The notes beneath the pieces were generated by a model. That model was not told where the DNA came from, ran no database searches, and saw only the letters and a list, made by a program, of their open reading frames with translations. 64,000 nucleotides of DNA, from NCBI GenBank assembly GCA_910589265.1, contig CAJUTQ010000074.1, forward strand, positions 14,353 through 78,352. Reading direction: 5' to 3'. Below are positions 2,836 to 58,991 of this stretch, piece after piece. A program made the translations under genes and the position numbers. Within the stretch, counting starts at the first letter, position 1. The number at the start of each line of letters is the position of its first letter. The DNA comes from an uncultured Lachnospiraceae bacterium. Lineage in GTDB: Bacteria; Bacillota; Clostridia; Lachnospirales; Lachnospiraceae.

Positions 2836-4255
2836 ACTTTTTTAATTCCTCCATAATGTTCATTGCATTTAGTAAAAAAGCAAATACTTTATTCTCTTGA
2901 TCCATATGAAGGGGAAGCATAGAAAGGAAGAGGGATGCCTCATAAAGACGAACCTGTATTGGATCATATCCATACTTCTTTAAATATTCCCCAAAAACTG
3001 TCCCATATGCAGTATTGTCTGTGTCAATGGAAAGACAGATCTTCATATCCCCTTCAATTGTCATTTGAAACAATCCGCTGTTAAAAAAATCATAGGATCC
3101 CCATATGGAATGGGAAAGCTTGGCCAGATCATAATATGGATGGGTATACAATTCCTCTTCTTTCAAAGCTCCTTTTGGATCAATGAGCTTTAGCAATGAG
3201 GCATCCTTATTATACAAAATGTTAGAAAAGCAAAGATCTCCATGTCCAACAACAAGCTTTTCTTCCATGTCTCCTCTCCCAGATAAATATCCATATATCC
3301 TTTTATACTCTTTAACAATTCCTGAAATTCCATCATAGTCTGTCCCTATACGAATCAAGTTGTCAAAGGTTTTATATCCTTCTTTTTGTTTAAGCATTTC
3401 TATCCTCTGAGCTACCTTTTCTATATAGAGCTTTTCTCCTATTTTTTCATACTCCTCCCTCGTTACTTTTTTCTCTTTTCTAGTCCTTAAAAAATAAAAA
3501 AGTTTATCTAAAATGTCTCTAAATTCCTCCATAGATACAGCTCCGTGAACAAAACGGATGGCAATGTCTGTCATGTGATAACGCTCCATTGTATAGGATG
3601 CGCCATCCGCCCATTCCTCATATCCAAAAGGCATTACAAACCAATACTTCATCTCATCAGGAAGCAAATAGTAAAATTCATATTCTGCCCTGATTTTTTC
3701 TTTATTTTCCGAAGACTTTTTTACTGTAAATTCATCTCCTGTTAATGCATTAAAATACCGGGCGTCAAAACCTCCTGTTAAAAACGTTCGAAAATGTCCA
3801 ATTTCAGAAAAATCAATAAATGCGTCTGATTCTAGCATAATAGGGGATGTTCTACTTCTCTCCTGACTTTTAAAATAAGAGGGAATATCTGGATACATCC
3901 ACATACTCGGTTTTCCATTACAGGCCACAGCATATGTTTCTTGTATATAGCTTGCTTTTTTCAATAATATTCGAAATGCTTCCCTATCTCCAATTCCAAA
4001 ATTAGAGGGGAGAACTAGAAGGGAGGTCTTTGCCTCTGTCTTTTCTAATTCTTCCTTGAGTAAAAACAGCTCTTTGTCTGATTCTACCTGGCGCACTTCT
4101 TTTACAGAGCCACAGAATAATATCTCTTCCTTCATTCTCTCCTTCAATGTCTTTCTTTTAAAAATTGTATTTCCAAAAGATTTTCCTCCTGTAATCTGGC
4201 AAATCTCCTGGTTTGGTTTTTTGCGGTCGTCATATATTACGAAAACTTTTTTCAT
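2828..4255 (-). CDS. Kinase-like protein (aminoglycoside/choline-kinase fold) with an unassigned ~190-aa N-terminal domain
   Basis: 475-aa ORF. The C-terminal half carries VVGHGDLCFSNILY and LKLIDPKG, matching the HxDxxxxN...D catalytic pattern of APH/ChoK-type small-molecule kinases. Confidence 0.7.
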   Translation of the reverse strand: MKKVFVIYDDRKKPNQEICQITGGKSFGNTIFKRKTLKERMKEEILFCGSVKEVRQVESDKELFLLKEELEKTEAKTSLLVLPSNFGIGDREAFRILLKKASYIQETYAVACNGKPSMWMYPDIPSYFKSQERSRTSPIMLESDAFIDFSEIGHFRTFLTGGFDARYFNALTGDEFTVKKSSENKEKIRAEYEFYYLLPDEMKYWFVMPFGYEEWADGASYTMERYHMTDIAIRFVHGAVSMEEFRDILDKLFYFLRTRKEKKVTREEYEKIGEKLYIEKVAQRIEMLKQKEGYKTFDNLIRIGTDYDGISGIVKEYKRIYGYLSGRGDMEEKLVVGHGDLCFSNILYNKDASLLKLIDPKGALKEEELYTHPYYDLAKLSHSIWGSYDFFNSGLFQMTIEGDMKICLSIDTDNTAYGTVFGEYLKKYGYDPIQVRLYEASLFLSMLPLHMDQENKVFAFLLNAMNIMEELKKYV

Positions 4256-5040
4256 CGTTTCATAACACCTATGCCTTTCCCTTTTTTACATTCTTTCCAT
4301 CTATAGCCCCCATACATCATCACCATAGAACCCCCTATCAAGGCAGTTCCAGCTAATGTATATATTTTTAGCAAAATACTACCTTCCATTAAAAAAATAG
4401 CCCCAATATAATTGGAAAATTCCTTCATCCCAAAAGGTTTTCCAATGAGAAATGAAAGTAGAAGCAAGGCAAGTATTTCCATTCCCCACCCTGCCATAGA
4501 TGCAATTAAAATAAGAGAATATCTTCCGCTTATAAGCTCTTTCACATAATCAAACCAGTCTTTCCCTTTGTCCAGCCATTGCAAAGCCTTCATGGAAGGG
4601 GGAGAGCTTTTATGAAGAATAAAGTAACGGTTTAAATATAAATAAGTAGGTAAAAAAATTCGGTATATAAATACAAGAAATAAGAGAACAACAAGGAGAA
4701 GGCCTGTAACTCTAGTAACCTCCCTTGTAAAAAACAGCTCAAAGGGTATAAGCAATAGGAGAAGTCCCACTGTATCAAAAAATCGATCAACACCAACGCT
4801 AAAAAGACCTATCTGAAAAACCTTTGTATCCTTTGCATAACAATAAATTCGGTAGCACTCCCCCATTTTAAAAGGTATCACCAAATTAACGAACGTGGTT
4901 TTCAAATATGTCCATAATAGCCGTCGAAACGGTATTTTCTGTTCTAATAATACAAGATACATTCTTGACATCTTTGCCATGTGTACAAGAAAAAATACAC
5001 AAAGAAATGCAAAAACTCCCCATAGCCTTCTGCCTTCCAC
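4252..5040 (-). CDS. Polytopic membrane protein, flippase-like (MprF TM-region / UPF0104-like)
   Basis: 262-aa ORF, hydrophobic throughout with about 7-8 predicted TM segments. ATGA overlap with the next gene. Family call is pattern-level only. Confidence 0.5.
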   Translation of the reverse strand: MEGRRLWGVFAFLCVFFLVHMAKMSRMYLVLLEQKIPFRRLLWTYLKTTFVNLVIPFKMGECYRIYCYAKDTKVFQIGLFSVGVDRFFDTVGLLLLLIPFELFFTREVTRVTGLLLVVLLFLVFIYRIFLPTYLYLNRYFILHKSSPPSMKALQWLDKGKDWFDYVKELISGRYSLILIASMAGWGMEILALLLLSFLIGKPFGMKEFSNYIGAIFLMEGSILLKIYTLAGTALIGGSMVMMYGGYRWKECKKGKGIGVMKR

Positions 5041-41700: not shown

Positions 41701-43653
41701 CTACTTATGGATACAGTATACTGTCGGAGAATATGGAGCATCTATCTTTATTGTCTTTACTTTATCTGAAGTTATTAGAAATTGGTAAAATGCAGTTTTC
41801 TCTAACCCTGACGTTAAATCCTCATGGATAATGACTGCTCCAATATGTTTGCTTTTTACCAGTTGTTCTATTTCTTCTAAAGATTCTTCTGCAATTAATT
41901 CATATACATAAGCAGATGGTATTAATTTACCTGGATTCTTTAGATAAGTATTAATAGGTAAATAATTCGTTAATATTATTTCATTGTCACCTATATTATC
42001 TTCTCCCACCTTGGCAACTTGTCTCATTTGCGAAGCAATGTTTTCATGGGACTTTCTATCTTTAGGCCAATTAACATTTATTATAATGTTAGCACCAAGA
42101 AATAACATTATAACGCTTATATATACTATGGCCTTTCCTAATCTTTGATTATAAATTGTTAAGAATAGACTGAAATAAGCAACTATCATTACAAGGGGAA
42201 TAACATATAAATATATATTATATCGTTCATTTTGCACAAACCAATCTGAAAAATAATATCCTTTTATATCAAACACTCCTAATACTGGTAATAAATTAAA
42301 TAATTCTACAATTGACAGTATAAAAAGCAACCTTTCTGTGTCCTTTATTTTCCTTTTCCATAGTTTTATACATCCTTGCAAAAATGCATATAATGTAGCT
42401 ATAAAACCTAAAATGATAACCATAGATAAAAAAAAGTTACCTATTCCTTCTTTAAAAAGAAATAAAGAATTCATTTTTTCCTGGAAATTAGAGTGTCCTA
42501 ATGGCTGAGACTGGGAATAAAGAGGGGTTCCCTGTGTCAAAATACGCCTATAAAACCGAAAATATCCTGTCTCAAAATACATTATCACATTTCGTGTAAA
42601 ACATACAGCAGCTCCTAAAAAGTAGAAAAATCCATATGTTAAGATTTTTTTTAATGGTACATGTAATATCAAAAGTAAAATAACTGCTGGTATCCCTGAT
42701 ATTCCCAGCATTAAAAAACCTAACCCATGACTCTGCCCAACAAAAAGACTTGCCAAAAATAGCATTACATACTCTTCTATATTTCTTTCATCATTTAATG
42801 AAGTAGATGTTAGTCTCCTTTTTATGATAGACAAAAATATAATTAAAAACATACTTATTGCTGTAATACGAAATCCCTCTCTATCTCCTCCTATATAAAT
42901 ACCATAAATTCTGTGGAAATAGAATAATGCACCAAAACTGACAGTTAAAACAAAACATGATTTTTTTATTATCAATGAAAGACCTATAAATGCTGCTGAC
43001 ATACTAATTAATGTCATAATCAAATATGATTTTATAACAGGTTGATTACAAATTTCTATTGTCTTCTCTGGTATTTTCATAATGCCATGAGCTAAATAAG
43101 TAATCCAAAATACACCATGAGAATCCTGTTCTACTGTGTCTTCCTTTCCATCTTTCCACTTGTCTCTTGCATAAATACTCGGTTCCTCTGCATAATATTT
43201 TGCTTCAAGAACATATTGATTAATATCATAATTAACAAGAGGAGCATAATAAAATTCTATAATATTAGCCACCAGTCTGCATAATAATATCACAGATAGT
43301 GCAGGCAAAATCCACCATTCTAAACTCTTTTGTTTTCTATGCTTCTTTTTTTGAATATTACTAATAAATTTTACAAAATGTGAAATAGTTCCTGAAAAAA
43401 TTACCCAGAGGAATAATATACATAAAGGCATCCATCGAGAAATAATATTTGGAGCATTTGGCAAAAGTATACCAACAAGACATACACACATAGAAATGTA
43501 AAAAGGAGTACTTGCCACTCCAAATAAAACTCTTATAGGCCAGTCTGCAAATAGTAACTTTTCGTTTCTATACATAAACACTGCCAGCAATCCTGCTGTC
43601 AAAAAAAGTTCCAACCAATTACCCATTCTAAAACCACGCCTTTCCTTTGTCAC
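41701..43653 (-). CDS. Large polytopic membrane protein with a ~130-aa C-terminal soluble domain (polymerase/GT-C-like candidate)
   Basis: 650 aa with about 14 TM segments and no recognisable motif. ATGA-type overlap with the amidotransferase gene upstream. Confidence 0.6.
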   Translation of the reverse strand: MTKERRGFRMGNWLELFLTAGLLAVFMYRNEKLLFADWPIRVLFGVASTPFYISMCVCLVGILLPNAPNIISRWMPLCILFLWVIFSGTISHFVKFISNIQKKKHRKQKSLEWWILPALSVILLCRLVANIIEFYYAPLVNYDINQYVLEAKYYAEEPSIYARDKWKDGKEDTVEQDSHGVFWITYLAHGIMKIPEKTIEICNQPVIKSYLIMTLISMSAAFIGLSLIIKKSCFVLTVSFGALFYFHRIYGIYIGGDREGFRITAISMFLIIFLSIIKRRLTSTSLNDERNIEEYVMLFLASLFVGQSHGLGFLMLGISGIPAVILLLILHVPLKKILTYGFFYFLGAAVCFTRNVIMYFETGYFRFYRRILTQGTPLYSQSQPLGHSNFQEKMNSLFLFKEGIGNFFLSMVIILGFIATLYAFLQGCIKLWKRKIKDTERLLFILSIVELFNLLPVLGVFDIKGYYFSDWFVQNERYNIYLYVIPLVMIVAYFSLFLTIYNQRLGKAIVYISVIMLFLGANIIINVNWPKDRKSHENIASQMRQVAKVGEDNIGDNEIILTNYLPINTYLKNPGKLIPSAYVYELIAEESLEEIEQLVKSKHIGAVIIHEDLTSGLEKTAFYQFLITSDKVKTIKIDAPYSPTVYCIHK

Positions 43654-45638
43654 ACTTTATATTGTTTTTTAATCTTATTAATAACCTTTAAGGCATCTTC
43701 CATTGGAACATGTATTGAATCAAAATACCATTTCATTGACTCAAACCGCGGTTCATTATCTTTGTAAATTAGCTCTAATCCCTCTTCCCTTGTGATCATT
43801 CCCTCTCTTATTTGGTTGCTCCTTAAAGTATCATTTTCTGTAAAACCGCAAACTGTATAATATATATAATTATAAAAGGGGGCTGTGCCATCTCCTATCC
43901 TCCATGTGGATTCTGTATCCTTAGCTTTTTCCCAATCATATTCTTCCGCCAATACTTGATTAATTACCTGTTCATCCCACGGAATGTAATGAAATAGCCT
44001 AAAATAGTGATGAGGAATTATATAGTAACTACAAGCAGCACCCAATGTATCTATAAGAGAAGAATTTATATAATCTCTATTTCCAAAAAATTGAGTCACA
44101 TAGTATTTTGCCATTTTTAATATATCCCTTATAGGTAACTGCTCTAGCTCCATATATATGTCTGATTTTAAAATTGATGGTTCAATGCCACAAAATCCTG
44201 ATTTAAAATGAGTCTTTTCATAAGGATTGGAGGCTAGCAAAATATGATCTAATTGATACTCTTTTTTTATTTTGTTTGCATAATAAAAATATTGCTTATC
44301 TCCAGCCATAAATAGTGGAATCATACCTAAATCAGGCTTTTTTAACCATGCTTCTACATTTTTTTTAATATGGGAGCGTTTCTTACTAATATTTGCAGAA
44401 ACAGGAATAAACTCTACTCCCAGCTTACTACACATTCTAGACTGATTTCTTCTGGCTAAGTCTGTAACCATTCCCCAATCATAGCTAAATGCTATTGGCT
44501 TTAAGCCAAGTTCTTTTACAAAATAATGAAGTCCATAACTACTATCTCTACCTCCGCTAAACGCAACAATAGAATCTGTTTTCCCCTTATAATGTTTCTT
44601 TAATCTCTCAGCCCATTGTCTTAATTTATCCTCGCCAATACATTGTTGGCGTTTATATGTTTTACAATAATTACAAACATTCTTATCATCAAACTGGATA
44701 AAAGGCATTGTCTCTGGCAGCAAACATTTTGTACATCTTTTTAATTTACGAATTGGCTCTACATCCACATCATATATAGAATATCGTTGGGGATTATAAT
44801 ATGTCTTTTTTTGAATGTAATAACTATTTTCTAAATACTTATGAAAATTTCTTTTTTTAACTTTAGCACGTTCATCCCAATTTATAAATTGAAATTCTTC
44901 TGGATAATACACTTTCATCTTTTTTAAATCAATAAAAATAGAATTCATAACTTGATGAATTATCTGTCCTTCAAACTCTTTTTTCAAATTCCAGTTCTTA
45001 TTTATTATTTTCTTTAATATCATTTTCTCAGATGCTGCAATAATTGTTTTTCCTTTTTTTCCTGCAACATAATATAAGGAACCATTATTCGTACATAATG
45101 CTGCAAATTCTATATCTGTAAATAATGTGATTGTAGAAGCCATCCCATTTAACTCAGAATAAGCATGTTCTAGCGCCTTTTCTATTGTATATCCTTGTTG
45201 ATATTTATCATTTAATAATTTTACAAATATTTCTGTATCTAATTCACTTTTCGCCTCCCAATCCTTATATTTTTCCCATAATTCTCTATCATTCACAATA
45301 ATTCCATTATGGACTGTTGCTATGTTTCCGCATAAAATAGGCTGATTATTTTCTGGCAAGTGCTGACAGCCATTCGTTACCAAACGTGAATGCCCAATGT
45401 AAACCTCATGATTACAATAATTATCAAGTAGCAGCTGTTTAAAAATATTCTCTTTTAACAATTTTGAGGATGGTTTTGGCATCTTAATTGTTAACACCTT
45501 ATTATCTGTCATTTTTGTGATGCCACTAGCTTCTTTTCCCCTTGACTGAGAAAGAATCATTAAATCACCTAAAATCCTTTTTTTCTCTTTTACTGTATAC
45601 CATCCTCTTTCAGAAAAAAACCCCCAAATTCCGCACAT
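43650..45638 (-). CDS. Fusion: class II (Ntn) glutamine amidotransferase domain plus WbpG-like N-acetyl-sugar amidotransferase (PP-loop)
   Basis: The N-terminus is MCGIWGFF...GHSRLVTNG...NNQPI. The C-terminal half has CTKCLLPETMPFIQFDDKNVCNYC (zinc ribbon) followed by the PP-loop IVAFSGGRDSSY. Confidence 0.75.
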   Translation of the reverse strand: MCGIWGFFSERGWYTVKEKKRILGDLMILSQSRGKEASGITKMTDNKVLTIKMPKPSSKLLKENIFKQLLLDNYCNHEVYIGHSRLVTNGCQHLPENNQPILCGNIATVHNGIIVNDRELWEKYKDWEAKSELDTEIFVKLLNDKYQQGYTIEKALEHAYSELNGMASTITLFTDIEFAALCTNNGSLYYVAGKKGKTIIAASEKMILKKIINKNWNLKKEFEGQIIHQVMNSIFIDLKKMKVYYPEEFQFINWDERAKVKKRNFHKYLENSYYIQKKTYYNPQRYSIYDVDVEPIRKLKRCTKCLLPETMPFIQFDDKNVCNYCKTYKRQQCIGEDKLRQWAERLKKHYKGKTDSIVAFSGGRDSSYGLHYFVKELGLKPIAFSYDWGMVTDLARRNQSRMCSKLGVEFIPVSANISKKRSHIKKNVEAWLKKPDLGMIPLFMAGDKQYFYYANKIKKEYQLDHILLASNPYEKTHFKSGFCGIEPSILKSDIYMELEQLPIRDILKMAKYYVTQFFGNRDYINSSLIDTLGAACSYYIIPHHYFRLFHYIPWDEQVINQVLAEEYDWEKAKDTESTWRIGDGTAPFYNYIYYTVCGFTENDTLRSNQIREGMITREEGLELIYKDNEPRFESMKWYFDSIHVPMEDALKVINKIKKQYKV

Positions 45639-45655: not shown

Positions 45656-46750
45656 TTATTTCTGCAATCTATCATTATCATACATATCAAACCACATAGC
45701 CAATCCAGTACAAAAAAGGCTTGCAATAAACATTACTACAAATCCTTGATATGTTCCATCTGTGACCTTTGTACTTCGGAAGAATCTTGTAACTATATAA
45801 AAGAAAAAATAAAGACTCCCTCCAAAAGCTCCTGTCCCCATTAAATAAAAGAAAAATATTGGGTGGAAATCTTTAAAGCAATATTTTTTTATGATTCTTT
45901 TCCAAAATCCTAAATAGAGTAATAAACTTATCTTTGGAATTACTTTTATGATGTTCATTTTTGATTGTTCACCCACATTGTATACAGGTTTAATTGCTAT
46001 CTCTTTGATAGTACACTTTGCTATATTTAATTTAATTAACATATCATTCGGCATTCCATAGTTTTTATAAATATTATATATATCTATTCTATTTAAAGCC
46101 CTTAACGAAATAGCCGTATACCCTGTCTGTGTATCAGATATCCTCCAATAACCTGAAGAAATTTTTGTCATAGCTGATAAAATTGAGTTTCCTACCCTCC
46201 TTGTTGTAGGTATTAATATGCGAGCAGCTTTATGTCCCAATCGGTTCCCTTTTACATAATCAATATCTTCATTTATAATAGGATAACAAATATCATATAA
46301 TTCATCTGGATCCATTTGTGCATCCCCCGCCATAACAGCAGTACAAAAAACATTGTGATCCCTACACCATTTGTATCCTACAGAAATGCCCCCCCCCACT
46401 TTGGCATTCATCTCATTATTTATCAATACAATTCTATCTTTTAAATTATCATTTACTATCTCATGCTTAATGTAATACTTGTCTTCTTCATCTAAAAGTT
46501 TATTTGCAATTATCTCTGCTTTATTAAAAAAATTTTCTTCCATTTCTCTATTTTTCCATGGAAGTTCCAAAACTTCATAAGTATCTTTTTTTATATACTC
46601 TTTTACTATTTCTTCCGTTTTATCTTTTGAGCAATCATTTACAACAACAATTCTATCTACAAAATCAGGCATTGTTTTTATTACCACACCAATTAATGAT
46701 TCTTCATTATATGCTGGAACTACTACTGCAACTATTTTTCCATCAAGCAT
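45656..46750 (-). CDS. GT2 glycosyltransferase with two C-terminal TM helices (polyprenyl-phosphate glycosyltransferase-like)
   Basis: VAVVVPAYNEESLIGVVIKTM, IVVVNDCSKDKTEE and AGDAQMD, with C-terminal hydrophobic segments FFFYLMGTGAFGGSLYFFFYIV and FVVMFIASLFCTGLAMWF. Confidence 0.8.
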   Translation of the reverse strand: MLDGKIVAVVVPAYNEESLIGVVIKTMPDFVDRIVVVNDCSKDKTEEIVKEYIKKDTYEVLELPWKNREMEENFFNKAEIIANKLLDEEDKYYIKHEIVNDNLKDRIVLINNEMNAKVGGGISVGYKWCRDHNVFCTAVMAGDAQMDPDELYDICYPIINEDIDYVKGNRLGHKAARILIPTTRRVGNSILSAMTKISSGYWRISDTQTGYTAISLRALNRIDIYNIYKNYGMPNDMLIKLNIAKCTIKEIAIKPVYNVGEQSKMNIIKVIPKISLLLYLGFWKRIIKKYCFKDFHPIFFFYLMGTGAFGGSLYFFFYIVTRFFRSTKVTDGTYQGFVVMFIASLFCTGLAMWFDMYDNDRLQK

Positions 46751-46780: not shown

Positions 46781-47977
46781 CTATCCTTTATGACTATGCT
46801 TCCTCTTCAAACCTTTATATATTTTATGCAGCTTTGAATAAACATAAGGATTATAATCAGCAAGAAAGCACAATCTATAATATAATTTCTCAGCAAATGT
46901 TAAAGTTTTCTCATATTCTTTGACAATGCTTTTTAAGTCTTTATCATCATCTCTTAATAGCTCCATTAACTTTTTTTTATAACTATGTGAAGATATTTCA
47001 TGTTCTACTTTTCTATTTTCAACAGATTCTGCTTGTATCCTATTTCCCAAAGCCTTAACTATTCTTTCTCCTTTTTGATTAAATGTGCTAATCTGGGAAA
47101 GCCCCATCTTAAAATCATTTTTTTCTCCATAATCCATATAGCTCCATGCATCTTCTAAGCGGATATCTCCAAAGGATTTTGCTTTTAGATCGAGACATTC
47201 CAGACAATCTTTTCTCACTGCTCCATATGTGCTAAAGCATTTTCCAAACAAGTCAAATTGTTTCTGCTTAAAGTAATGCTTTCCTGACTGAAATTTTATT
47301 TCTATTCCCCAATTTAGCCAGTCTCTTCTCTTCGATCTCATATTTATCCATGTAATATTACTCTTATTTTCCTCTTTTTGATATTCTATATACTTATTTA
47401 GTAAGTTGTATCCAGCGGGGCCAAAACATTTAAAGTCAACAAGTATTAAATTCTCATGGTTTGGATATGCCTTACGAATAGCCTGGATTTGACAGGGTGT
47501 CCCAAACACCAATACCTTTTTATATTTTAATATTTTTGAAAAAGCTTCCACTGTATAACTGGGGACATATTTTGAACCACATATTTGCTTTATTTTATTT
47601 TTATCTGAGATAACAATATGCTCTACTACTCCATTAGAATTCATAGCAGCTCCCATTACCACATATTCATTTTCTACTGCCCACTTCGCAATTGCCGTTG
47701 CAATTCCCCCTGAAGAGCTAACTTTTCTTATTCGCTCATCTCTATAATATCCAACATAAATATGTTGTGCAAAACGACCTTCAGTCTCATTTTCATTCTG
47801 ATATTTTCTGCATACTTTGACACATTGTCCACAATGGATGCAGCTTCCTTTAACTACAGCCTCAAAATATCCATCCTTATCTAATTCCATGGAAATACAC
47901 TTTTTAGGGCATACACATGCACATATTCCGCATCCAATACAATTCTTTAAAGACTCTTTTTCTATATTATTGATCAT
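46781..47977 (-). CDS. FrhB/FdhB-like (coenzyme F420 hydrogenase beta-like) protein with an N-terminal 2x[4Fe-4S] ferredoxin domain
   Basis: CIGCGICACVCPKKC and CIHCGQCVKVC motifs. The family is commonly paired with polysaccharide pyruvyl transferases. Confidence 0.65.
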   Translation of the reverse strand: MINNIEKESLKNCIGCGICACVCPKKCISMELDKDGYFEAVVKGSCIHCGQCVKVCRKYQNENETEGRFAQHIYVGYYRDERIRKVSSSGGIATAIAKWAVENEYVVMGAAMNSNGVVEHIVISDKNKIKQICGSKYVPSYTVEAFSKILKYKKVLVFGTPCQIQAIRKAYPNHENLILVDFKCFGPAGYNLLNKYIEYQKEENKSNITWINMRSKRRDWLNWGIEIKFQSGKHYFKQKQFDLFGKCFSTYGAVRKDCLECLDLKAKSFGDIRLEDAWSYMDYGEKNDFKMGLSQISTFNQKGERIVKALGNRIQAESVENRKVEHEISSHSYKKKLMELLRDDDKDLKSIVKEYEKTLTFAEKLYYRLCFLADYNPYVYSKLHKIYKGLKRKHSHKG

Positions 47978-48660: not shown

Positions 48661-49605
48661 CTATTTGATATCTTTTAATCTTTTATAAACAGGTATTATA
48701 AATATAAGACTATATAAAAAGTATGTTAAAAATCCACTGAATCTGATTAATAAGGAAATCATAATTCCATCATTAAAATAATTTCCTGTATAATATGTGG
48801 CAGTACCAATAAGCACTTCTTTTACTCCTAGATTACCAGGTAAAAATGACACGATATCTGATAGATAGTCTATTCCAGTATAAATTAATATTAAAAAAAA
48901 ATTCATCTCGTTGCCCAACGCAGCATAAACACAAAACATTCTTAAAGAATGTATCATTTCACTTATAAAAGTAATAACAATTACCTTTAACAGAACTTTT
49001 CTATTTTCTATCAAAACTATAAATCCTTTAACAATAGGAAGGGTATACTTTTGAAAAGGCAATTTTGAAAAAACATATTCTCCATATTTCCTTGAAAAGA
49101 AAATAAATAAATTGATCAATATCACTAGTAAAATAGCAAAAATCCAAAGGATCCATGGAAACCGATTTTTCATTAATAATAAAAACAAAAGTCCTACTAA
49201 AATTTCCATGCTAACAGCATATAATCCTACCATAAATCCTCCTGCGGTTATGGAAGTAAAATAGCTTAAACTGACTCCACATTTTTTCTTATAATATCCA
49301 GCAGATAATGCCAATCCTCCTCGAAAAGGTAAAAAGTAGGATAAAAGATTCACAATAGCTTGCATCCCAAACCAATCTATTAAATCTATTTTTCCTCCCA
49401 TTTGTTCTACAGCAATCTTTCTATATCGAAATCCCCATAGAGGTGATAGCAAGGATAACCCCATGATTCCATATAAATACTCCGATTTCAAATATAAAAT
49501 TCTTATAAAATCATCTTTTTGTGCATATATATATTTTACTAATAAAACTGCTATCGTTATGAAAGCTGCAATACTAATTACTTTTATCCACTTGCTTTTA
49601 CTCAC
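48661..49605 (-). CDS. Polytopic membrane protein, flippase-like (MprF TM-region / UPF0104-like)
   Basis: 314 aa with about 8 TM segments. The architecture is similar to 4252-5040. Confidence 0.5.
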   Translation of the reverse strand: MSKSKWIKVISIAAFITIAVLLVKYIYAQKDDFIRILYLKSEYLYGIMGLSLLSPLWGFRYRKIAVEQMGGKIDLIDWFGMQAIVNLLSYFLPFRGGLALSAGYYKKKCGVSLSYFTSITAGGFMVGLYAVSMEILVGLLFLLLMKNRFPWILWIFAILLVILINLFIFFSRKYGEYVFSKLPFQKYTLPIVKGFIVLIENRKVLLKVIVITFISEMIHSLRMFCVYAALGNEMNFFLILIYTGIDYLSDIVSFLPGNLGVKEVLIGTATYYTGNYFNDGIMISLLIRFSGFLTYFLYSLIFIIPVYKRLKDIK

Positions 49606-49618
49606 AGTTACTTCTCCC

Positions 49619-50875
49619 CTATACCTTTGTAATTAAACTATGTGCCAACTTCACATTCCTTCTAGCATTTTCTATTACCTCAGGAAGTTTATGATTCATG
49701 CTCTGTCTTAAAGTTTCCCTGCAAATCCACAATTCCTCTAATAAACTGCATGCTTTAAAACAATTAACATCCTGATATTTCATTACATATTTTTCCATTC
49801 TGTTCCCTCCCACTTCCCTAAAAGCCTCTTGATATTTATGACTCCAAGCAACAGATAAAGAAGGAACTCCACTAGAAATTGCTCCTATTAAAAAATGATA
49901 TCGAGAACCCACTGCTATTTCAGCCTTTGAAATAATGCCTTTTATTTCATCTGATTTTACATTCGTCTCTGTAATGAAAACAGGTATCTTATTTGAAAGG
50001 CAAGATGCAATTTTTTTGCAAGTAGAAATATCATCTCTAATACTGTTTACACCAATATGCTTTGAATGCCCACGGCTATGGGGAACTAATATAATTGGTA
50101 GTTTACTTAAATCATATGCCTTTTCTACTAATGCTTTAAATAGCCCAATATATTTATCTTCTCCCATTAGCTCCTCTACAACTGTACTTGGCCCTACTGC
50201 AATATATCCAAACTCTAGAGATATTCCATATTTACTTCCAAACTTGTCCATGTTTAATTTTCTAGGCCTTAAACAGAATGCAACATCTGGCAGATTATAT
50301 ATTCTTTTATTAGGAAGTAAATTTTTGACATAATGGTAACTGATTTCTCCCCTTGCAATAATAATATCCATTTTTTCTAACATATATTTTGAGACTGTTC
50401 TTACTATTTTTGTTTCAAAAGGCCCCATAGACTGGCTTACTTTTATCATAGGCTTATCTAATATAATAGCAGGCAAAAACCACAAAGTATTTATTATTAA
50501 TCCCGATATACTTCTATCATCAGTAAATGAAATACCTGATAAATCTACAAGTATATCTGCTTCTTTATAAGCTTTTAGCCTTCCTATTGCAAGCCATTTA
50601 TAGGGCATATGAAATTTTTTTAGAGTTCCTCCTATACAATAGAAAAACATCCCATAAGTCAACTGATATAAAGTTGAGTAATTTACTATCTTCCAGCCTT
50701 GTTTAAGAGCCTCTTTTTTATCATCTTTAAAATACTTTGACAGAACAGTAACTTCCGTCTTTCCAAATAGCTTTTCATATTCCTTCACAAAAGACATATA
50801 TAATGCATGTCCCCCCAAATTACCACTTAATGTTGCCCCAGCTAACAAAATTTTATCTTTTTTCATTATTAACAA
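49619..50875 (-). CDS. Polysaccharide pyruvyl transferase family protein (WcaK/CsaB-like)
   Basis: 418 aa with N-terminal ILLAGATLSGNLGGHALYMS and a distal GSRYHFLIGAISSGVPSL block. It is adjacent to the FrhB-like gene. Confidence 0.6.
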   Translation of the reverse strand: MLIMKKDKILLAGATLSGNLGGHALYMSFVKEYEKLFGKTEVTVLSKYFKDDKKEALKQGWKIVNYSTLYQLTYGMFFYCIGGTLKKFHMPYKWLAIGRLKAYKEADILVDLSGISFTDDRSISGLIINTLWFLPAIILDKPMIKVSQSMGPFETKIVRTVSKYMLEKMDIIIARGEISYHYVKNLLPNKRIYNLPDVAFCLRPRKLNMDKFGSKYGISLEFGYIAVGPSTVVEELMGEDKYIGLFKALVEKAYDLSKLPIILVPHSRGHSKHIGVNSIRDDISTCKKIASCLSNKIPVFITETNVKSDEIKGIISKAEIAVGSRYHFLIGAISSGVPSLSVAWSHKYQEAFREVGGNRMEKYVMKYQDVNCFKACSLLEELWICRETLRQSMNHKLPEVIENARRNVKLAHSLITKV

Positions 50876-53392: not shown

Positions 53393-55276
53393 TTAATTCT
53401 CTTTCGATATCTGAACATCAAAAAGTTTTACCCATCTTCCTGCGCAAATAAGGCGCCAAGCTAAAAAATCTCCTCTTTTTATCTTTCCTTCATTTTTATC
53501 AAACCATTTTAAAATTTTGTCTCTTTCTATAAGTGGCTCCAAACTTTTACAGGCCTCTGATAGCTCTTTTCTGAAATATCTAAAATTTTGATTTATCCAT
53601 TGATCTTCTGGAGTGACAAATCCTAACTTACTGTATCTTAACCTGATTTTGTCTGGCAGAATTTTATTCAAACCATCTCTTAAAACTGCCTTAGTAATTC
53701 CATTGCGTATTTTATAAGTAATAGGAAGGGATAATAGATATTCCACTAATCGGTAATCAAGAAATGGGACTCTTGATTCAATTGAATGGGCCATGGAATC
53801 CCTATCCTCAAAGTGAAGTAAAGCAGACATTCCATATCGAATACTATCAAGTATATATTTCCTGTCATCTTTTACTGGGTAAATCTCTCTATTGTTCATA
53901 ACCCTTTCCAACAATTTCTCTGAAAAAGGTAATCCTAGATGGGAATATCTTGCTTTTTTGGCCAATCTTTTTTTTAATTTTTCAGGTATCATTAGTGGAA
54001 TAAGTGCTGCCAAAATAATTTGTTTATTAGATACATGAGTCTCTGTTCCTGCGCGAAGCCGAAGATAACTATCAATTTCCCTTTTTAATGATAGCAACTT
54101 TAACTTTTTTAAATAGTATGCAAACAATACACTATAAAATCCTGAGTAACCAGCCAGCTGTTCGTCTGCTCCCTGCCCATCCAGCATGACAGTTAGCCCT
54201 CTTTTCTTTGCACATTCGAAAACACTCCATTGAGCATAAATAGATGTGGAGCCAAAAGGCTCGTCCATATGCCAAATAATTTTATCTATTTTATTAAAAA
54301 GATTTTCTTCTGTTGGAAAAACCTTTATAGGCTTAACATTTGTATTTTTTATTACTTCATCAATATATTCCTGTTCATCATAATTTTTATCTTCAAAGCA
54401 AGAAGAAACAGAATATTGACAAACTTCTTTCTCTTTTAATAATCTGTCCGCCAAACATACAATGGAGGAACTATCCAATCCTCCTGATAAGCAGTAACCA
54501 ATAGGCACATCTGCTCTTAATCGAAGTTTCACAGAACTTTGAAAAGTATGTTGGAATTCTAAGCATGCCTGTCTATAATCTATTTTTTTTTGTTGGATTT
54601 TTTCTAAATCATAATATTTGTGTACATCTATTTTAAAAGAGCGTAGATCTAAAATTAAATTTTGGCCACCTAAAAGCTGTTTTACGTTGGAAAACATTGT
54701 TTCGTCTGTATAATCTTGATCCCCTAAAATTAAAAATTCCAATAACCGCTGGATATTTGCCTGGGGCTTCCCCCCTATTCCCTTTAAAATCTGCTTTATT
54801 TCTGATGCACATAAAAAAGAATTGTCATCGTGCCAATAATAAAACGGTTTTACTCCAAACCTGTCCCTAGAGCAAAATAAAATCTGTCTTTCTCTATCGT
54901 ACAAAACAAAAGACCACATTCCATTAAACTTATTTACACAAGATTCTTTATAATAATCATACATAGCAACCAATACTTCTGTATCCGTTTTTGTTCGAAA
55001 ACAATATCCCTTCTTTTCCAAACTCTCTTTCAATTCAATATAATTATATATTTCTCCATTAAATGACAAAATATATTTCTCTTTGTATATAAATGGTTGA
55101 TGTCCCAAAGGGCTTAAATCAATGATCGAAAGCCTTCTATGTCCTATTGCCAAGTTTCCTTCATAAAAAGTCCCTCTGTCGTCTGGTCCTCGATGCTCAA
55201 TAATATCTACCATTTCCTCAAAATCTTCTTTTAAAATTGTACCATGCCTTTTAAAGCAACATGCAATTCCGCACAT
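53393..55276 (-). CDS. Asparagine synthase (glutamine-hydrolysing)-like amidotransferase, copy 1
   Basis: MCGIAC, HRRLSIIDLS and the PP-loop CLSGGLDSSSIV. Confidence 0.85.
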   Translation of the reverse strand: MCGIACCFKRHGTILKEDFEEMVDIIEHRGPDDRGTFYEGNLAIGHRRLSIIDLSPLGHQPFIYKEKYILSFNGEIYNYIELKESLEKKGYCFRTKTDTEVLVAMYDYYKESCVNKFNGMWSFVLYDRERQILFCSRDRFGVKPFYYWHDDNSFLCASEIKQILKGIGGKPQANIQRLLEFLILGDQDYTDETMFSNVKQLLGGQNLILDLRSFKIDVHKYYDLEKIQQKKIDYRQACLEFQHTFQSSVKLRLRADVPIGYCLSGGLDSSSIVCLADRLLKEKEVCQYSVSSCFEDKNYDEQEYIDEVIKNTNVKPIKVFPTEENLFNKIDKIIWHMDEPFGSTSIYAQWSVFECAKKRGLTVMLDGQGADEQLAGYSGFYSVLFAYYLKKLKLLSLKREIDSYLRLRAGTETHVSNKQIILAALIPLMIPEKLKKRLAKKARYSHLGLPFSEKLLERVMNNREIYPVKDDRKYILDSIRYGMSALLHFEDRDSMAHSIESRVPFLDYRLVEYLLSLPITYKIRNGITKAVLRDGLNKILPDKIRLRYSKLGFVTPEDQWINQNFRYFRKELSEACKSLEPLIERDKILKWFDKNEGKIKRGDFLAWRLICAGRWVKLFDVQISKEN

Positions 55277-57089: not shown

Positions 57090-58991
57090 TTATTTTAACA
57101 TATTTCTATACCTTTGTGCCTGATCATGAAAAATAGTCTGCCACATTTCCAAGCAAAAAAATCCCCAGAGATTTCTTGCAAAAGTATTCTCTGTATCAAT
57201 TTTTTTCAGTACAACTTTATTATTGATAAATCTTCTGTCTTTTGCTTTTTGAGAAGATAACATATCAAGTATAAAATCTCTTGCCTCTTTTTTTGCCCAT
57301 CTTGCAAAGGGAGTTGGAAAACCCATCTTATCTTTTCTATCCATTACCTTTGAAGGAACATACTTACTCATGGCTTCTCTTAATAAATATTTCATCCTTC
57401 CATCTTTAAATTTAATATCAGCTGGTATAGTTGCTGCAAATTCCACTAACTTTTTGTCTAAAAAAGGAACTCTTGATTCAATCCCATGTGCCATGCTCAT
57501 TCGATCTTCTACTTGCAATAAAGCTGGAAGAAGTGTTTTAAAGTCAAAATGAGTCATTCGATCTAAATAAGCGTCCTTGTCCACATTCTCTGCAATAAAT
57601 AGTCGTTTGTAAGAGGTATATGGGTCATAATCCCCAAGCTCTTCTTTATAAATACAATCTTCCATCTCAGGGGCGCGATTAATAAGGCGATAATATCGTG
57701 TATTAGATGGTTCAAATAGCCCTTGTCTCCAAAAGCTTTTTATCATTGGTTTATAATTTTTTAAACTAATGAGATTAGGAATAATCGACTCATACGTAAC
57801 TACAAACTTCCCTGAATTCATTGTACCATCTAAAGCGCCTTTAATACACTGTTCAAAATAAGCCACCAAATATCTTGCATATCCCCCAAATATTTCATCT
57901 CCTCCCTGCCCTCCTAATACCACTTTTCGATGCTCACTGGCCAATTTAGAAACCATGTATTGAGAAAAGGAACCTGGGCCTGCAATAGGAGTATCTAAAT
58001 GATAAATTACTTTTCCTATATTTTCTATGAAATCATGAGCTGTTATATCAATTTGGTAAAGCTTGAACTGTTTTTCATCTGCAACTGCTTGAGCATATAA
58101 GCTTTCATCATACTCAGGACTAATGCTAAACTTTCCTGTAAATCCTTCAAAATTACCATGAAGTAAATCTGATGCTAATGCTGAAGTAATAGAAGAATCC
58201 ACTCCTCCGCTAACATATCCGCCAACAGGGACGTCACTTCGTATATGATATTTAATGGAATCATGAAAACACTGCTCTAATCTTTCCTGAAAATATTTCT
58301 CTGTATGGTAGCTATCTGCACGGTAATATACCTGCCAGTACCGTTCCTTTTTTATTTCTCCATTTTGAATTACAATAGAATATGCGGGACGCAATTCATA
58401 AATATTTTGGAATAAGGTCCTTCCATCAAGGCAAAATTGAAATACGATATAATCACTAAAGGCTTTTCTATCTGTCTCTATAGATTTTAAAAAGGGGAGT
58501 AGGGCCTTAGCCTCAGAGGAAAAATAAAAGGTATCTCCCTCTGAATAATAATAAAATGGTTTTATTCCAAAGGGATCTCTTGCACAAAAAAGTTTTTGTT
58601 CTTTTTCATCCCACAGTGCAAAAGCAAACATTCCACAAAAATGGTTTACACAGTCTTCTCCCCATTTCCTATAAGCATGAAGAACTACTTCCGTATCACT
58701 ATTTGTCTTACAAACCAATCCCAACTCTTTATTTAATTCTCTATAATTATAAATCTCCCCATTAAAGCAGACCCAATTTCCCTCTTCATCCCTCATTGGC
58801 TGCTTCCCATTATCTAAATCAATAATACTTAAACGTCTATGGGCAAAACCAACAATATTATTTTCGTGAATCCAAATTCCTTCCCCATCTGGTCCTCTAT
58901 GAGCCTGAATCTCATTCATTACCTGCAATTTTCTTTCTAGATTATTCACTTTATTTCTTTTATAATTGTATATTCCTGCAATTGAACACAT
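57090..58991 (-). CDS. Asparagine synthase (glutamine-hydrolysing)-like amidotransferase, copy 2
   Basis: MCSIAGIY, HRRLSIIDL and the PP-loop YVSGGVDSSITSA. Confidence 0.85.
   Translation of the reverse strand: MCSIAGIYNYKRNKVNNLERKLQVMNEIQAHRGPDGEGIWIHENNIVGFAHRRLSIIDLDNGKQPMRDEEGNWVCFNGEIYNYRELNKELGLVCKTNSDTEVVLHAYRKWGEDCVNHFCGMFAFALWDEKEQKLFCARDPFGIKPFYYYSEGDTFYFSSEAKALLPFLKSIETDRKAFSDYIVFQFCLDGRTLFQNIYELRPAYSIVIQNGEIKKERYWQVYYRADSYHTEKYFQERLEQCFHDSIKYHIRSDVPVGGYVSGGVDSSITSALASDLLHGNFEGFTGKFSISPEYDESLYAQAVADEKQFKLYQIDITAHDFIENIGKVIYHLDTPIAGPGSFSQYMVSKLASEHRKVVLGGQGGDEIFGGYARYLVAYFEQCIKGALDGTMNSGKFVVTYESIIPNLISLKNYKPMIKSFWRQGLFEPSNTRYYRLINRAPEMEDCIYKEELGDYDPYTSYKRLFIAENVDKDAYLDRMTHFDFKTLLPALLQVEDRMSMAHGIESRVPFLDKKLVEFAATIPADIKFKDGRMKYLLREAMSKYVPSKVMDRKDKMGFPTPFARWAKKEARDFILDMLSSQKAKDRRFINNKVVLKKIDTENTFARNLWGFFCLEMWQTIFHDQAQRYRNMLK

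Follow-up and report, generated by a model that had tools for sequence, protein, structure and literature searches.

A class II glutaminase fused to an N-acetyl sugar amidotransferase-like domain in a Lachnospiraceae glycan cluster, and its family 2 glycosyltransferase partner

The N-acetyl sugar amidotransferases (NASATs) collected in the model TIGR03573 include WbuX of Escherichia coli O145, WbpG of Pseudomonas aeruginosa O5, PseA of Campylobacter jejuni, AglX of Methanococcus maripaludis and LpNASAT (PDB 8WEX). Acetamidino sugars are surface determinants with a positive charge; Pseudomonas, Legionella and E. coli O145 have them in their O-antigens, and they are also found in flagellin and in archaeal N-glycans. 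To our knowledge, the delivery of the amidine nitrogen has never been shown biochemically and the amidine-forming chemistry has never been reconstituted. Here we analyze P0001, a protein encoded in a 64,000-nucleotide stretch of DNA from an uncultured Lachnospiraceae bacterium (hereafter the window). P0001 shares with the NASATs the four-cysteine zinc motif, the SGGxDS PP-loop, homology over a catalytic domain of ~370 amino acids (aa), a structural match to 8WEX and a glycan-locus context. It differs in carrying a fused N-terminal glutaminase of ~290 aa including the linker, and the fused proteins are paired with a GtrB-like family 2 glycosyltransferase (GT2) that is lacking in 18 stand-alone NASAT loci. 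As judged from its sequence, P0001 is a member of a large uncharacterised sister clade of NASATs that carries its own glutaminase.

Fusion of a glutaminase to a synthetase is well known from AsnB, GuaA, NadE and CTP synthase, and in kind the architecture of P0001 is therefore no surprise. AsnB joins a class II glutamine amidotransferase to a PP-loop synthetase by way of an intramolecular ammonia tunnel. A second group of relevant systems modifies sugars on lipid carriers: ArnC/ArnD/ArnT (undecaprenyl phosphate (Und-P)-linked Ara4FN to Ara4N), FlmF2/NaxD/FlmK (Und-P-GalNAc to GalN), PpgS/Rv3779 and GtrA/B/C.

Domain architecture of the fusion

The P0001 open reading frame (ORF) is preceded by a ribosome-binding site, GAGGGGGA, which was graded strong and ends 9 nt from the ATG. 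This makes credible the Met1-Cys2 start that is required for an N-terminal nucleophile (Ntn) glutaminase. Pfam searches matched residues 75-208 to GATase_7 (46.8 bits, cutoff 25) and GATase_6 (41.6 bits, cutoff 27). The catalytic residues are Cys2, Arg85, Asn111-Gly112 and Asp134, and in an HMMER alignment to E. coli GlmS the last three positions (R85, N111/G112 and D134) correspond to R73, N98/G99 and D123. When 73 full-length homologs were aligned, N111 and G112 were invariant and C2, R85 and D134 were at least 90% conserved; an M-C-G start is present in 128 of the 142 long family representatives (at least 600 aa). The best relative of the family profile among solved structures is GlmS (59 bits over residues 1-264), and AsnB misses an E value of 0.001. 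The glutaminase thus appears, from its conserved residues, to be active, and a built-in supply of ammonia is the natural reading of that conservation.

No significant Pfam match was found within the C-terminal 370 residues. The best NCBIfam family for P0001 is TIGR03573 (WbuX, "N-acetyl sugar amidotransferase"), which matches in two stretches at 123.2 bits and thereby misses its curated cutoff of 203.2; canonical stand-alone NASATs reach 227-391 bits on the same model. An earlier sequence-only reading of this DNA, which had proposed that a class II glutaminase is fused to a WbpG-like enzyme, had named GATase_2 or GATase_7, together with TIGR03573, as the models to consult. GATase_7 is above its cutoff, and TIGR03573 is the best family yet falls short of its own. 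The definition of a NASAT combines the PP-loop SGGXDS with a tetracysteine motif, CXXCXn[GN]XCXXC, that forms the zinc site of 8WEX; the only structural paper on these enzymes describes 8WEX, the only solved NASAT (PMC10607449). Residues C302, C305, C322 and C325 and the sequence SGGRDS of P0001 are invariant across the 73 fused-family members. An hhalign comparison of fused C-terminal domains with 11 canonical stand-alone NASATs gave a probability of 100% (E 1.7e-44) over 320 columns at ~19% identity. The alignment runs from residue 5 to 362 of 368 in the fused domain and from 1 to 346 of 370 in the canonical one, indicating end-to-end homology. Conservation of the C-terminal domain across phyla is high, with a mean column identity of 54% in the alignment of the 73 homologs, and the fused proteins contain the clade-specific invariant motifs PLFMAGDK and TWRIGDGT.

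An AlphaFold2 (AF2) model of P0001 had a mean predicted local distance difference test (pLDDT) score of 91.7 and a predicted template modelling (pTM) score of 0.91. The latter is high for a two-domain chain, and the relative packing of the domains is therefore also confidently predicted. Foldseek searches of the PDB with this model returned GlmS/GFAT through the N-terminal domain and 8WEX for the C-terminal half (TMt 0.58, ~415 columns, 20% identity), whereas AsnB matched with a global template modelling (TM) score of only 0.28-0.35. These results confirm that P0001 joins a class II glutaminase to a PP-loop domain of the NASAT type. The description of the C-terminal half as WbpG-like holds at the level of the superfamily, but P0001 is not a WbpG orthologue, given the ~19% identity, the bit score below the TIGR03573 cutoff and a separate, long-branched clade (see below).

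Some public annotations would make P0001 a third AsnB paralog of the window or a GlmS-like enzyme. Names given to its homologs by JGI include "asparagine synthetase B" and "glutamine-fructose-6-phosphate transaminase", and the N-terminal domain is indeed matched by the NCBIfam GlmS, PurF and AsnB models. These matches cover the N-terminal domain only and score 28-75 bits against cutoffs of 267-418; for the AsnB model, TIGR01536, the values are 28.6 and 267. The Asn_synthase domain PF00733 and the SIS domain are both absent, BLAST of P0001 against either of the AsnB paralogs encoded in the window gave E values above 0.4, and the Foldseek scores point the same way. Both assignments can be ruled out, and we give this explanation almost no credence. 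Domain models and BLAST likewise do not place the C-terminal half with QueC or asparagine synthase, either of which the sequence-only reading had named as a finding that would overturn its interpretation. P0001 does resemble AsnB in its logic, in which an Ntn glutaminase would pass ammonia to an adenylating PP-loop domain in the same chain; the differences are that the AsnB synthetase domain belongs to another family, that the P0001 glutaminase is nearer to GlmS and that the two chains do not superpose globally.

A literature search found no paper on the fusion, in keeping with the view that the architecture is undescribed; most subscription journals were outside the coverage of this search, and the result is not proof.

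Family distribution and ammonia supply

A search with full-length P0001 returned ~8,000 database hits. The best 120 were 45-88% identical to P0001 and all but three covered 100% of the query. Most of the homologs are unnamed or annotated as "hypothetical", and a few as "predicted glutamine amidotransferase" or by the AsnB and GlmS names mentioned above. An exhaustive HMMER search with the C-terminal domain alone found 3,305 clusters at 50% identity, 384 of them at E <= 1e-30; among the best 150 clusters, 142 have proteins of at least 600 aa in which the match begins near residue 280-320. Two peptide patterns are enough to recover the fusion gene from GTDB, where at least 584 species carry it. 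The phyla among the listed species are Bacillota, Bacteroidota, Chloroflexota, Planctomycetota, Patescibacteria, Pseudomonadota (for example Bosea and Legionella londiniensis), Acidobacteriota, Verrucomicrobiota and Omnitrophota, and the gene is also found in one Woesearchaeota archaeon. The survey of public genomes that the sequence-only reading had called for thus finds the architecture to be widespread and abundant rather than rare.

In a maximum-likelihood tree the fused C-terminal domains form one clade with 100/100 support, separated from all sampled stand-alone NASATs by a stem of 3.13 substitutions per site; the stand-alone controls come from one phylum only, and the placement of the fused clade is subject to a long-branch caveat. 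TIGR03573 is the best family for all 73 members tested (best E 2.8e-43), and every one falls below its cutoff, so annotation pipelines leave the family unnamed.

Several variants of the domain were seen. P0257 (398 aa) is a stand-alone C-terminal domain that nests within the fused clade. In P0188 (756 aa) the NASAT-like domain is N-terminal (59-419) and is followed by ~340 residues ending in a hydrophobic segment. Four loci, L133-L136 (genomes G107, G231, G322 and G213), encode stand-alone NASAT-like proteins of 335-344 aa with the four cysteines and the PP-loop, scoring 110-155 bits on TIGR03573; L134 falls inside the canonical clade and L133, L135 and L136 are further long-branched lineages outside it. 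The NASAT superfamily is more varied than would be expected from its one NCBIfam model.

For some stand-alone NASATs ammonia is presumed to be supplied from glutamine by the pairs WbuY/WbuZ, HisH2/HisF2 and AglY/AglZ. The N-terminal domain of P0001 would play the same part, but those pairs consist of a class I (triad) glutaminase and a HisF barrel, as separate proteins. The sequence-only reading had noted the absence of a hisH/hisF paralog, and this was borne out: tblastn found none in the window (best E = 0.61), and the genome does not have a dedicated HisH/HisF glutaminase pair. P0001 is the sole TIGR03573-like sequence of this 3.3-Mb genome (98% complete). The only hisH-hisF pair lies on another contig (locus L089, contig C97, positions 3307-4753), near ung, lysA, polA and coaE and not in a his operon. 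With hisH directly upstream of hisF and no hisA between them, this pair was a candidate WbuY/WbuZ. However, its HisF scores 381 bits on the true HisF model TIGR00735, above the cutoff of 294.55, whereas its 287 bits on the WbuZ model are just short of the 299.7 required, and from this and the non-sugar neighbours we conclude that it is a housekeeping pair.

For comparison, the vicinity (~8 kb) was searched at 14 loci (L119-L132) whose canonical NASATs pass the TIGR03573 cutoff and which come from the phylum of this bacterium. HisH/HisF are adjacent in 4 of these 14 loci and in 4 of 80 fused loci (Fisher p = 0.016), a depletion expected if the fused glutaminase replaces the pair. HisH/HisF are, by the same count, not a universal partner of stand-alone NASATs; the remaining 10 canonical loci lack them within ~8 kb. 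The earlier proposal that the fusion is an alternative way to deliver ammonia is therefore supported by the conserved glutaminase residues, but replacement of HisH/HisF is only a partial explanation, as only 4 of the 14 controls have the pair to replace.

These same controls bear on a further possibility, that the glutaminase is vestigial or regulatory and that P0001 uses free ammonia, as is presumably the case in many stand-alone NASATs without HisH/HisF. The ten canonical loci without an adjacent glutaminase would fit this explanation, as would the nesting of stand-alone P0257 in the fused clade. Conservation of the catalytic residues and of the M-C-G start across phyla argues in the other direction, as does a glutaminase domain that is folded in the model with a pLDDT above 90, and we consider a vestigial glutaminase very improbable.

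The GT2 partner and the proposed pathway

When all ORFs of 78 related fused loci were clustered with no prior choice of genes, the family that most often accompanied the fusion was a GT2 of ~317 aa, found in 56 of the 78 loci and in 29 of the 39 with full 10-kb flanks; in its commonest layout it lies on the same strand within 1 kb upstream of the fusion (28 of 62 copies). A hidden Markov model of this family gave full-length matches of at least 150 bits in 56/78 fused loci and in 0/18 stand-alone NASAT loci. One of these 18 control loci matched the model at all, weakly (38 bits). A tblastn search with the window's own GT2, P0273, found it in 39/80 fused versus 0/18 control loci (p = 3.5e-5). 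The fusion therefore has a conserved partnership with a GtrB/ArnC-like GT2. C-terminal transmembrane helices are present in 58 of 62 family members, and the best matches of the 55 members scanned are synthases of polyprenyl-monophosphate sugars, namely AglJ (52), PpgS (50), dolichyl phosphate (Dol-P)-hexose transferase (35), PgfS (33) and ArnC (24); those to AglJ, PpgS, PgfS and ArnC are all below the equivalog cutoffs. P0273 itself matches GT2 in Pfam and AglJ, Dol-P-hexose transferase and PpgS in NCBIfam. It carries an insertion of ~75 aa inside the GT2 domain, between a Pfam match to residues 9-65 and an NCBIfam match that picks up again at ~139. Most relatives lack this insertion; the family median is 317 aa, compared with 364 in P0273.

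Other families found among the 78 loci are Wzx (29), methyltransferases (25), GT4 (24), DegT aminotransferases (21), epimerases (20), WecB (17), hexapeptide acetyltransferases (17), UDP-sugar 6-dehydrogenases (11), DUF354 (9) and PMT_2 (8).

As the most likely function we propose, with roughly equal weight for and against, that P0001 is a self-sufficient glutamine- and ATP-dependent sugar amidotransferase that forms a unit with the GT2 and puts an acetamidino sugar into a lipid-carrier glycan decoration. In this scheme Cys2 of the Ntn domain would hydrolyse glutamine and free ammonia. The zinc-ribbon/PP-loop domain would adenylate the carbonyl oxygen of the N-acetyl group of a sugar, converting ATP to AMP and pyrophosphate, and the channelled ammonia would displace AMP to yield a positively charged acetamidino (N-acetimidoyl) sugar. 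The fusion might modify a common UDP-N-acetylhexosamine (UDP-HexNAc), whose product the GT2 would then load on undecaprenyl phosphate. Alternatively, it might modify Und-P-HexNAc made by the GT2, as ArnD and NaxD act after ArnC and FlmF2. Once the lipid-linked amidino sugar had been flipped, a polytopic transferase would move it to a polymer of the cell surface; the local candidate for this transferase is P0272, encoded beside the fusion. We infer the amidine chemistry, the acceptor, the interdomain channelling and the lipid-carrier route.

The acceptor is probably a common HexNAc, a sugar type that is universally available. This is argued by the strong conservation of the C-terminal domain across phyla and by the nearest named relatives of the GT2, which include enzymes of N-acylated amino sugars (PpgS, ArnC). 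A uronic-acid carboxylate cannot be what the family modifies in general, because UDP-sugar 6-dehydrogenase is found in only 11 of the 78 loci. The likeness to the Arn, Flm, PpgS and Gtr pathways lies in a membrane-anchored GT2 of the same type, encoded beside an enzyme that would modify the N-acyl group and a polytopic protein that may be of the GT-C type, and in an end product that would be a cationic sugar decoration. The difference is that the N-acyl group would be turned into an amidine instead of being removed, and that the GT-C protein and the flippase are only candidates here. A more specific form of the proposal, that the GT2 makes Und-P-HexNAc, the fusion amidinates it at the membrane and a GT-C-like protein transfers it after flipping, in a widespread and unrecognised pathway, is put forward tentatively and we think it rather less probable than not. 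It would be a third N-acyl remodelling on a lipid carrier, beside ArnD deformylation and NaxD deacetylation, and a general route to positive charge on the envelope in many bacterial phyla and some archaea.

Several observations weigh against the proposed function. About a quarter of the full-flank loci lack the GT2. No conserved small GtrA-like flippase was found among the fused loci, where 15 small polytopic ORFs were seen in 14 loci, several of them contig-end fragments. Assignment of P0272 to the GT-C type is weak, since it is a sequence orphan with no family hit of its own and an AF2 model with a pLDDT of 36. The long stem and the low identity to characterised NASATs leave room for another acceptor or another chemistry, and the literature search found no characterised member of the fused clade. 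The canonical NASAT chemistry itself comes mostly from genetics, and the 8WEX paper is without an activity assay (PMC10607449).

The gene content of the window also counts against our proposal and in favour of a role like that of WbpG, in which P0001 would act on soluble UDP-GlcNAc3NAcA or UDP-ManNAc3NAcA, converting the 3-acetamido group to 3-acetamidino; ordinary glycosyltransferases would use the product and the GT2 would be an unrelated neighbour. In line with such a role, genes for a TviB/WbpA-like dehydrogenase, a WbpE-like aminotransferase, a WbpD-like acetyltransferase and a WecB/WbpI-like epimerase are all part of the cluster, and the frequencies of DegT aminotransferases and hexapeptide acetyltransferases in the fused loci are consistent with it. 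A WbpB-type oxidoreductase was, however, not identified in the window. Across phyla the partner is the GtrB-like GT2 and not the diacetamido-uronic acid genes, as the dehydrogenase count also indicates, and the degree of conservation of the C-terminal domain suggests one common acceptor rather than a rare, locus-specific sugar. We regard the WbpG-type role as unlikely. UDP-ManNAc3NAcA, which the sequence-only reading had put forward as substrate, is plausible in this cluster with its WbpA/E/D/I-like genes, but is unlikely for the family as a whole, whose conserved partner is the GtrB/ArnC-like GT2.

The same glutaminase and PP-loop logic could also serve another chemistry or acceptor, such as turning a carboxylate into a carboxamide, building an amidine on a formyl or another acyl group, or modifying a non-sugar lipid or peptide. 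PP-loop enzymes are known to adenylate many types of carbonyl (AsnB, NadE, GuaA, QueC, TilS), and the very long branch and clade-specific motifs of the fused proteins would accommodate such a change. On the other hand, TIGR03573 is the best family of every member tested, and the alignment with NASATs extends from the zinc ribbon through the PP-loop to the C-terminal helical region. Genes for sugars and glycans make up the great majority of the neighbours, and two AsnB-type enzymes are already at hand in the window for carboxylate amidation. We think it improbable that the chemistry or acceptor is of another kind.

A single-chain enzyme with its own glutaminase, as we propose P0001 to be, would offer the simplest means of reconstituting amidine chemistry in vitro. 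Its link to the GT2 suggests a new route of envelope charge modification, with a bearing on phage receptors, antimicrobial-peptide resistance and immune recognition. Naming the family and assigning its function would improve many annotations, in hundreds of species that include gut Firmicutes, Bacteroidota and bacteria of the Candidate Phyla Radiation. The value of the system lies in the size of the unnamed family, its conserved GT2 partnership and the simplicity of a single chain.

The surrounding glycan cluster

P0001 lies inside a long minus-strand glycan cluster, the main features of which are given in Table 1. In the order of the window, which is the reverse of transcription, the cluster encodes the TviB/WbpA-like dehydrogenase, P0272, the fusion, the GT2 P0273, an FrhB-like protein, a TylF methyltransferase, an LPG_synthase_TM protein, a pyruvyl transferase, a methyltransferase, a deacetylase-like protein, DUF354, AsnB, the hexapeptide acetyltransferase, the DegT aminotransferase, a second AsnB and WecB. 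The genes for the GT2, the fusion and P0272 are tightly packed.

Table 1. Features of P0001 and neighbouring genes, with positions in the window
Feature	Position	Strand	Remarks
P0001, focal gene	43650..45638	minus	Intact ORF, 662 aa, ATG start, begins MCGIWG; Ntn glutaminase and NASAT-like PP-loop/zinc domain
Class II (Ntn, GlmS-like) glutamine amidotransferase domain, residues 1-250	44889..45638	minus	GATase_7/6, GlmS alignment
NASAT-like (WbuX/WbpG superfamily) ATP-pyrophosphatase domain, residues 296-662	43653..44753	minus	TIGR03573, hhalign, Foldseek
Tetracysteine zinc-ribbon motif, C302-x2-C305...N-V-C322-x2-C325	44664..44735	minus	Sequence CTKC...NVCNYC; NASAT-defining motif
PP-loop, S361-G-G-R-D-S366	44541..44558	minus	ATP alpha-beta pyrophosphatase signature; SGGXDS family signature
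P0273, GtrB/ArnC/PpgS-like GT2	45656..46750	minus	Polyprenyl-phosphate sugar synthase type, C-terminal transmembrane; upstream, stop 17 nt before focal ATG
P0272, polytopic protein	41701..43653	minus	650 aa, ~10 transmembrane segments and soluble C-terminal domain; start overlaps focal stop, or lies 24 nt downstream
FrhB/FdhB-like Fe-S protein	46781..47977	minus	
LPG_synthase_TM membrane protein	48661..49605	minus	MprF flippase-like; Pfam 79 bits
CsaB/WcaK-like polysaccharide pyruvyl transferase	49619..50875	minus	
AsnB-type amidotransferase	53393..55276	minus	TIGR01536, 443 bits
AsnB-type amidotransferase	57090..58991	minus	TIGR01536, 526 bits

Among 5.8 billion sequences only P0272 itself and one relative of 86% identity were found, and its AF2 model was built from these two sequences. 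Relatives were nevertheless detected by jackhmmer in 10 loci, several of them directly downstream of the fusion in other phyla, and three of the relatives match PMT_2, the ArnT/PMT-type GT-C family. This is suggestive only of a GT-C-type transferase.

The LPG_synthase_TM protein is a speculative candidate for the flippase of the module, as are the Wzx proteins; relatives of it occur in 9 of the 78 fused loci, and 6 immediate neighbours of the fusion belong to this family. When the FrhB-like, TylF, pyruvyl transferase and LPG_synthase_TM proteins of the window were used as tblastn queries, almost nothing was found in the related loci, and we take these to be genes of the local cluster and not of the family.

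The two genuine AsnB-type amidotransferases (~32-35% mutual identity) bracket the DegT aminotransferase and the hexapeptide acetyltransferase. Their probable role is to amidate the carboxylates of uronic acids or to attach an amino acid. Together with the fusion they place three glutamine-dependent amidating enzymes within 16 kb. Finally, the FrhB/FdhB-like Fe-S protein is encoded near the polysaccharide pyruvyl transferase, which hints that a pyruvylated glycan is made from the same locus.

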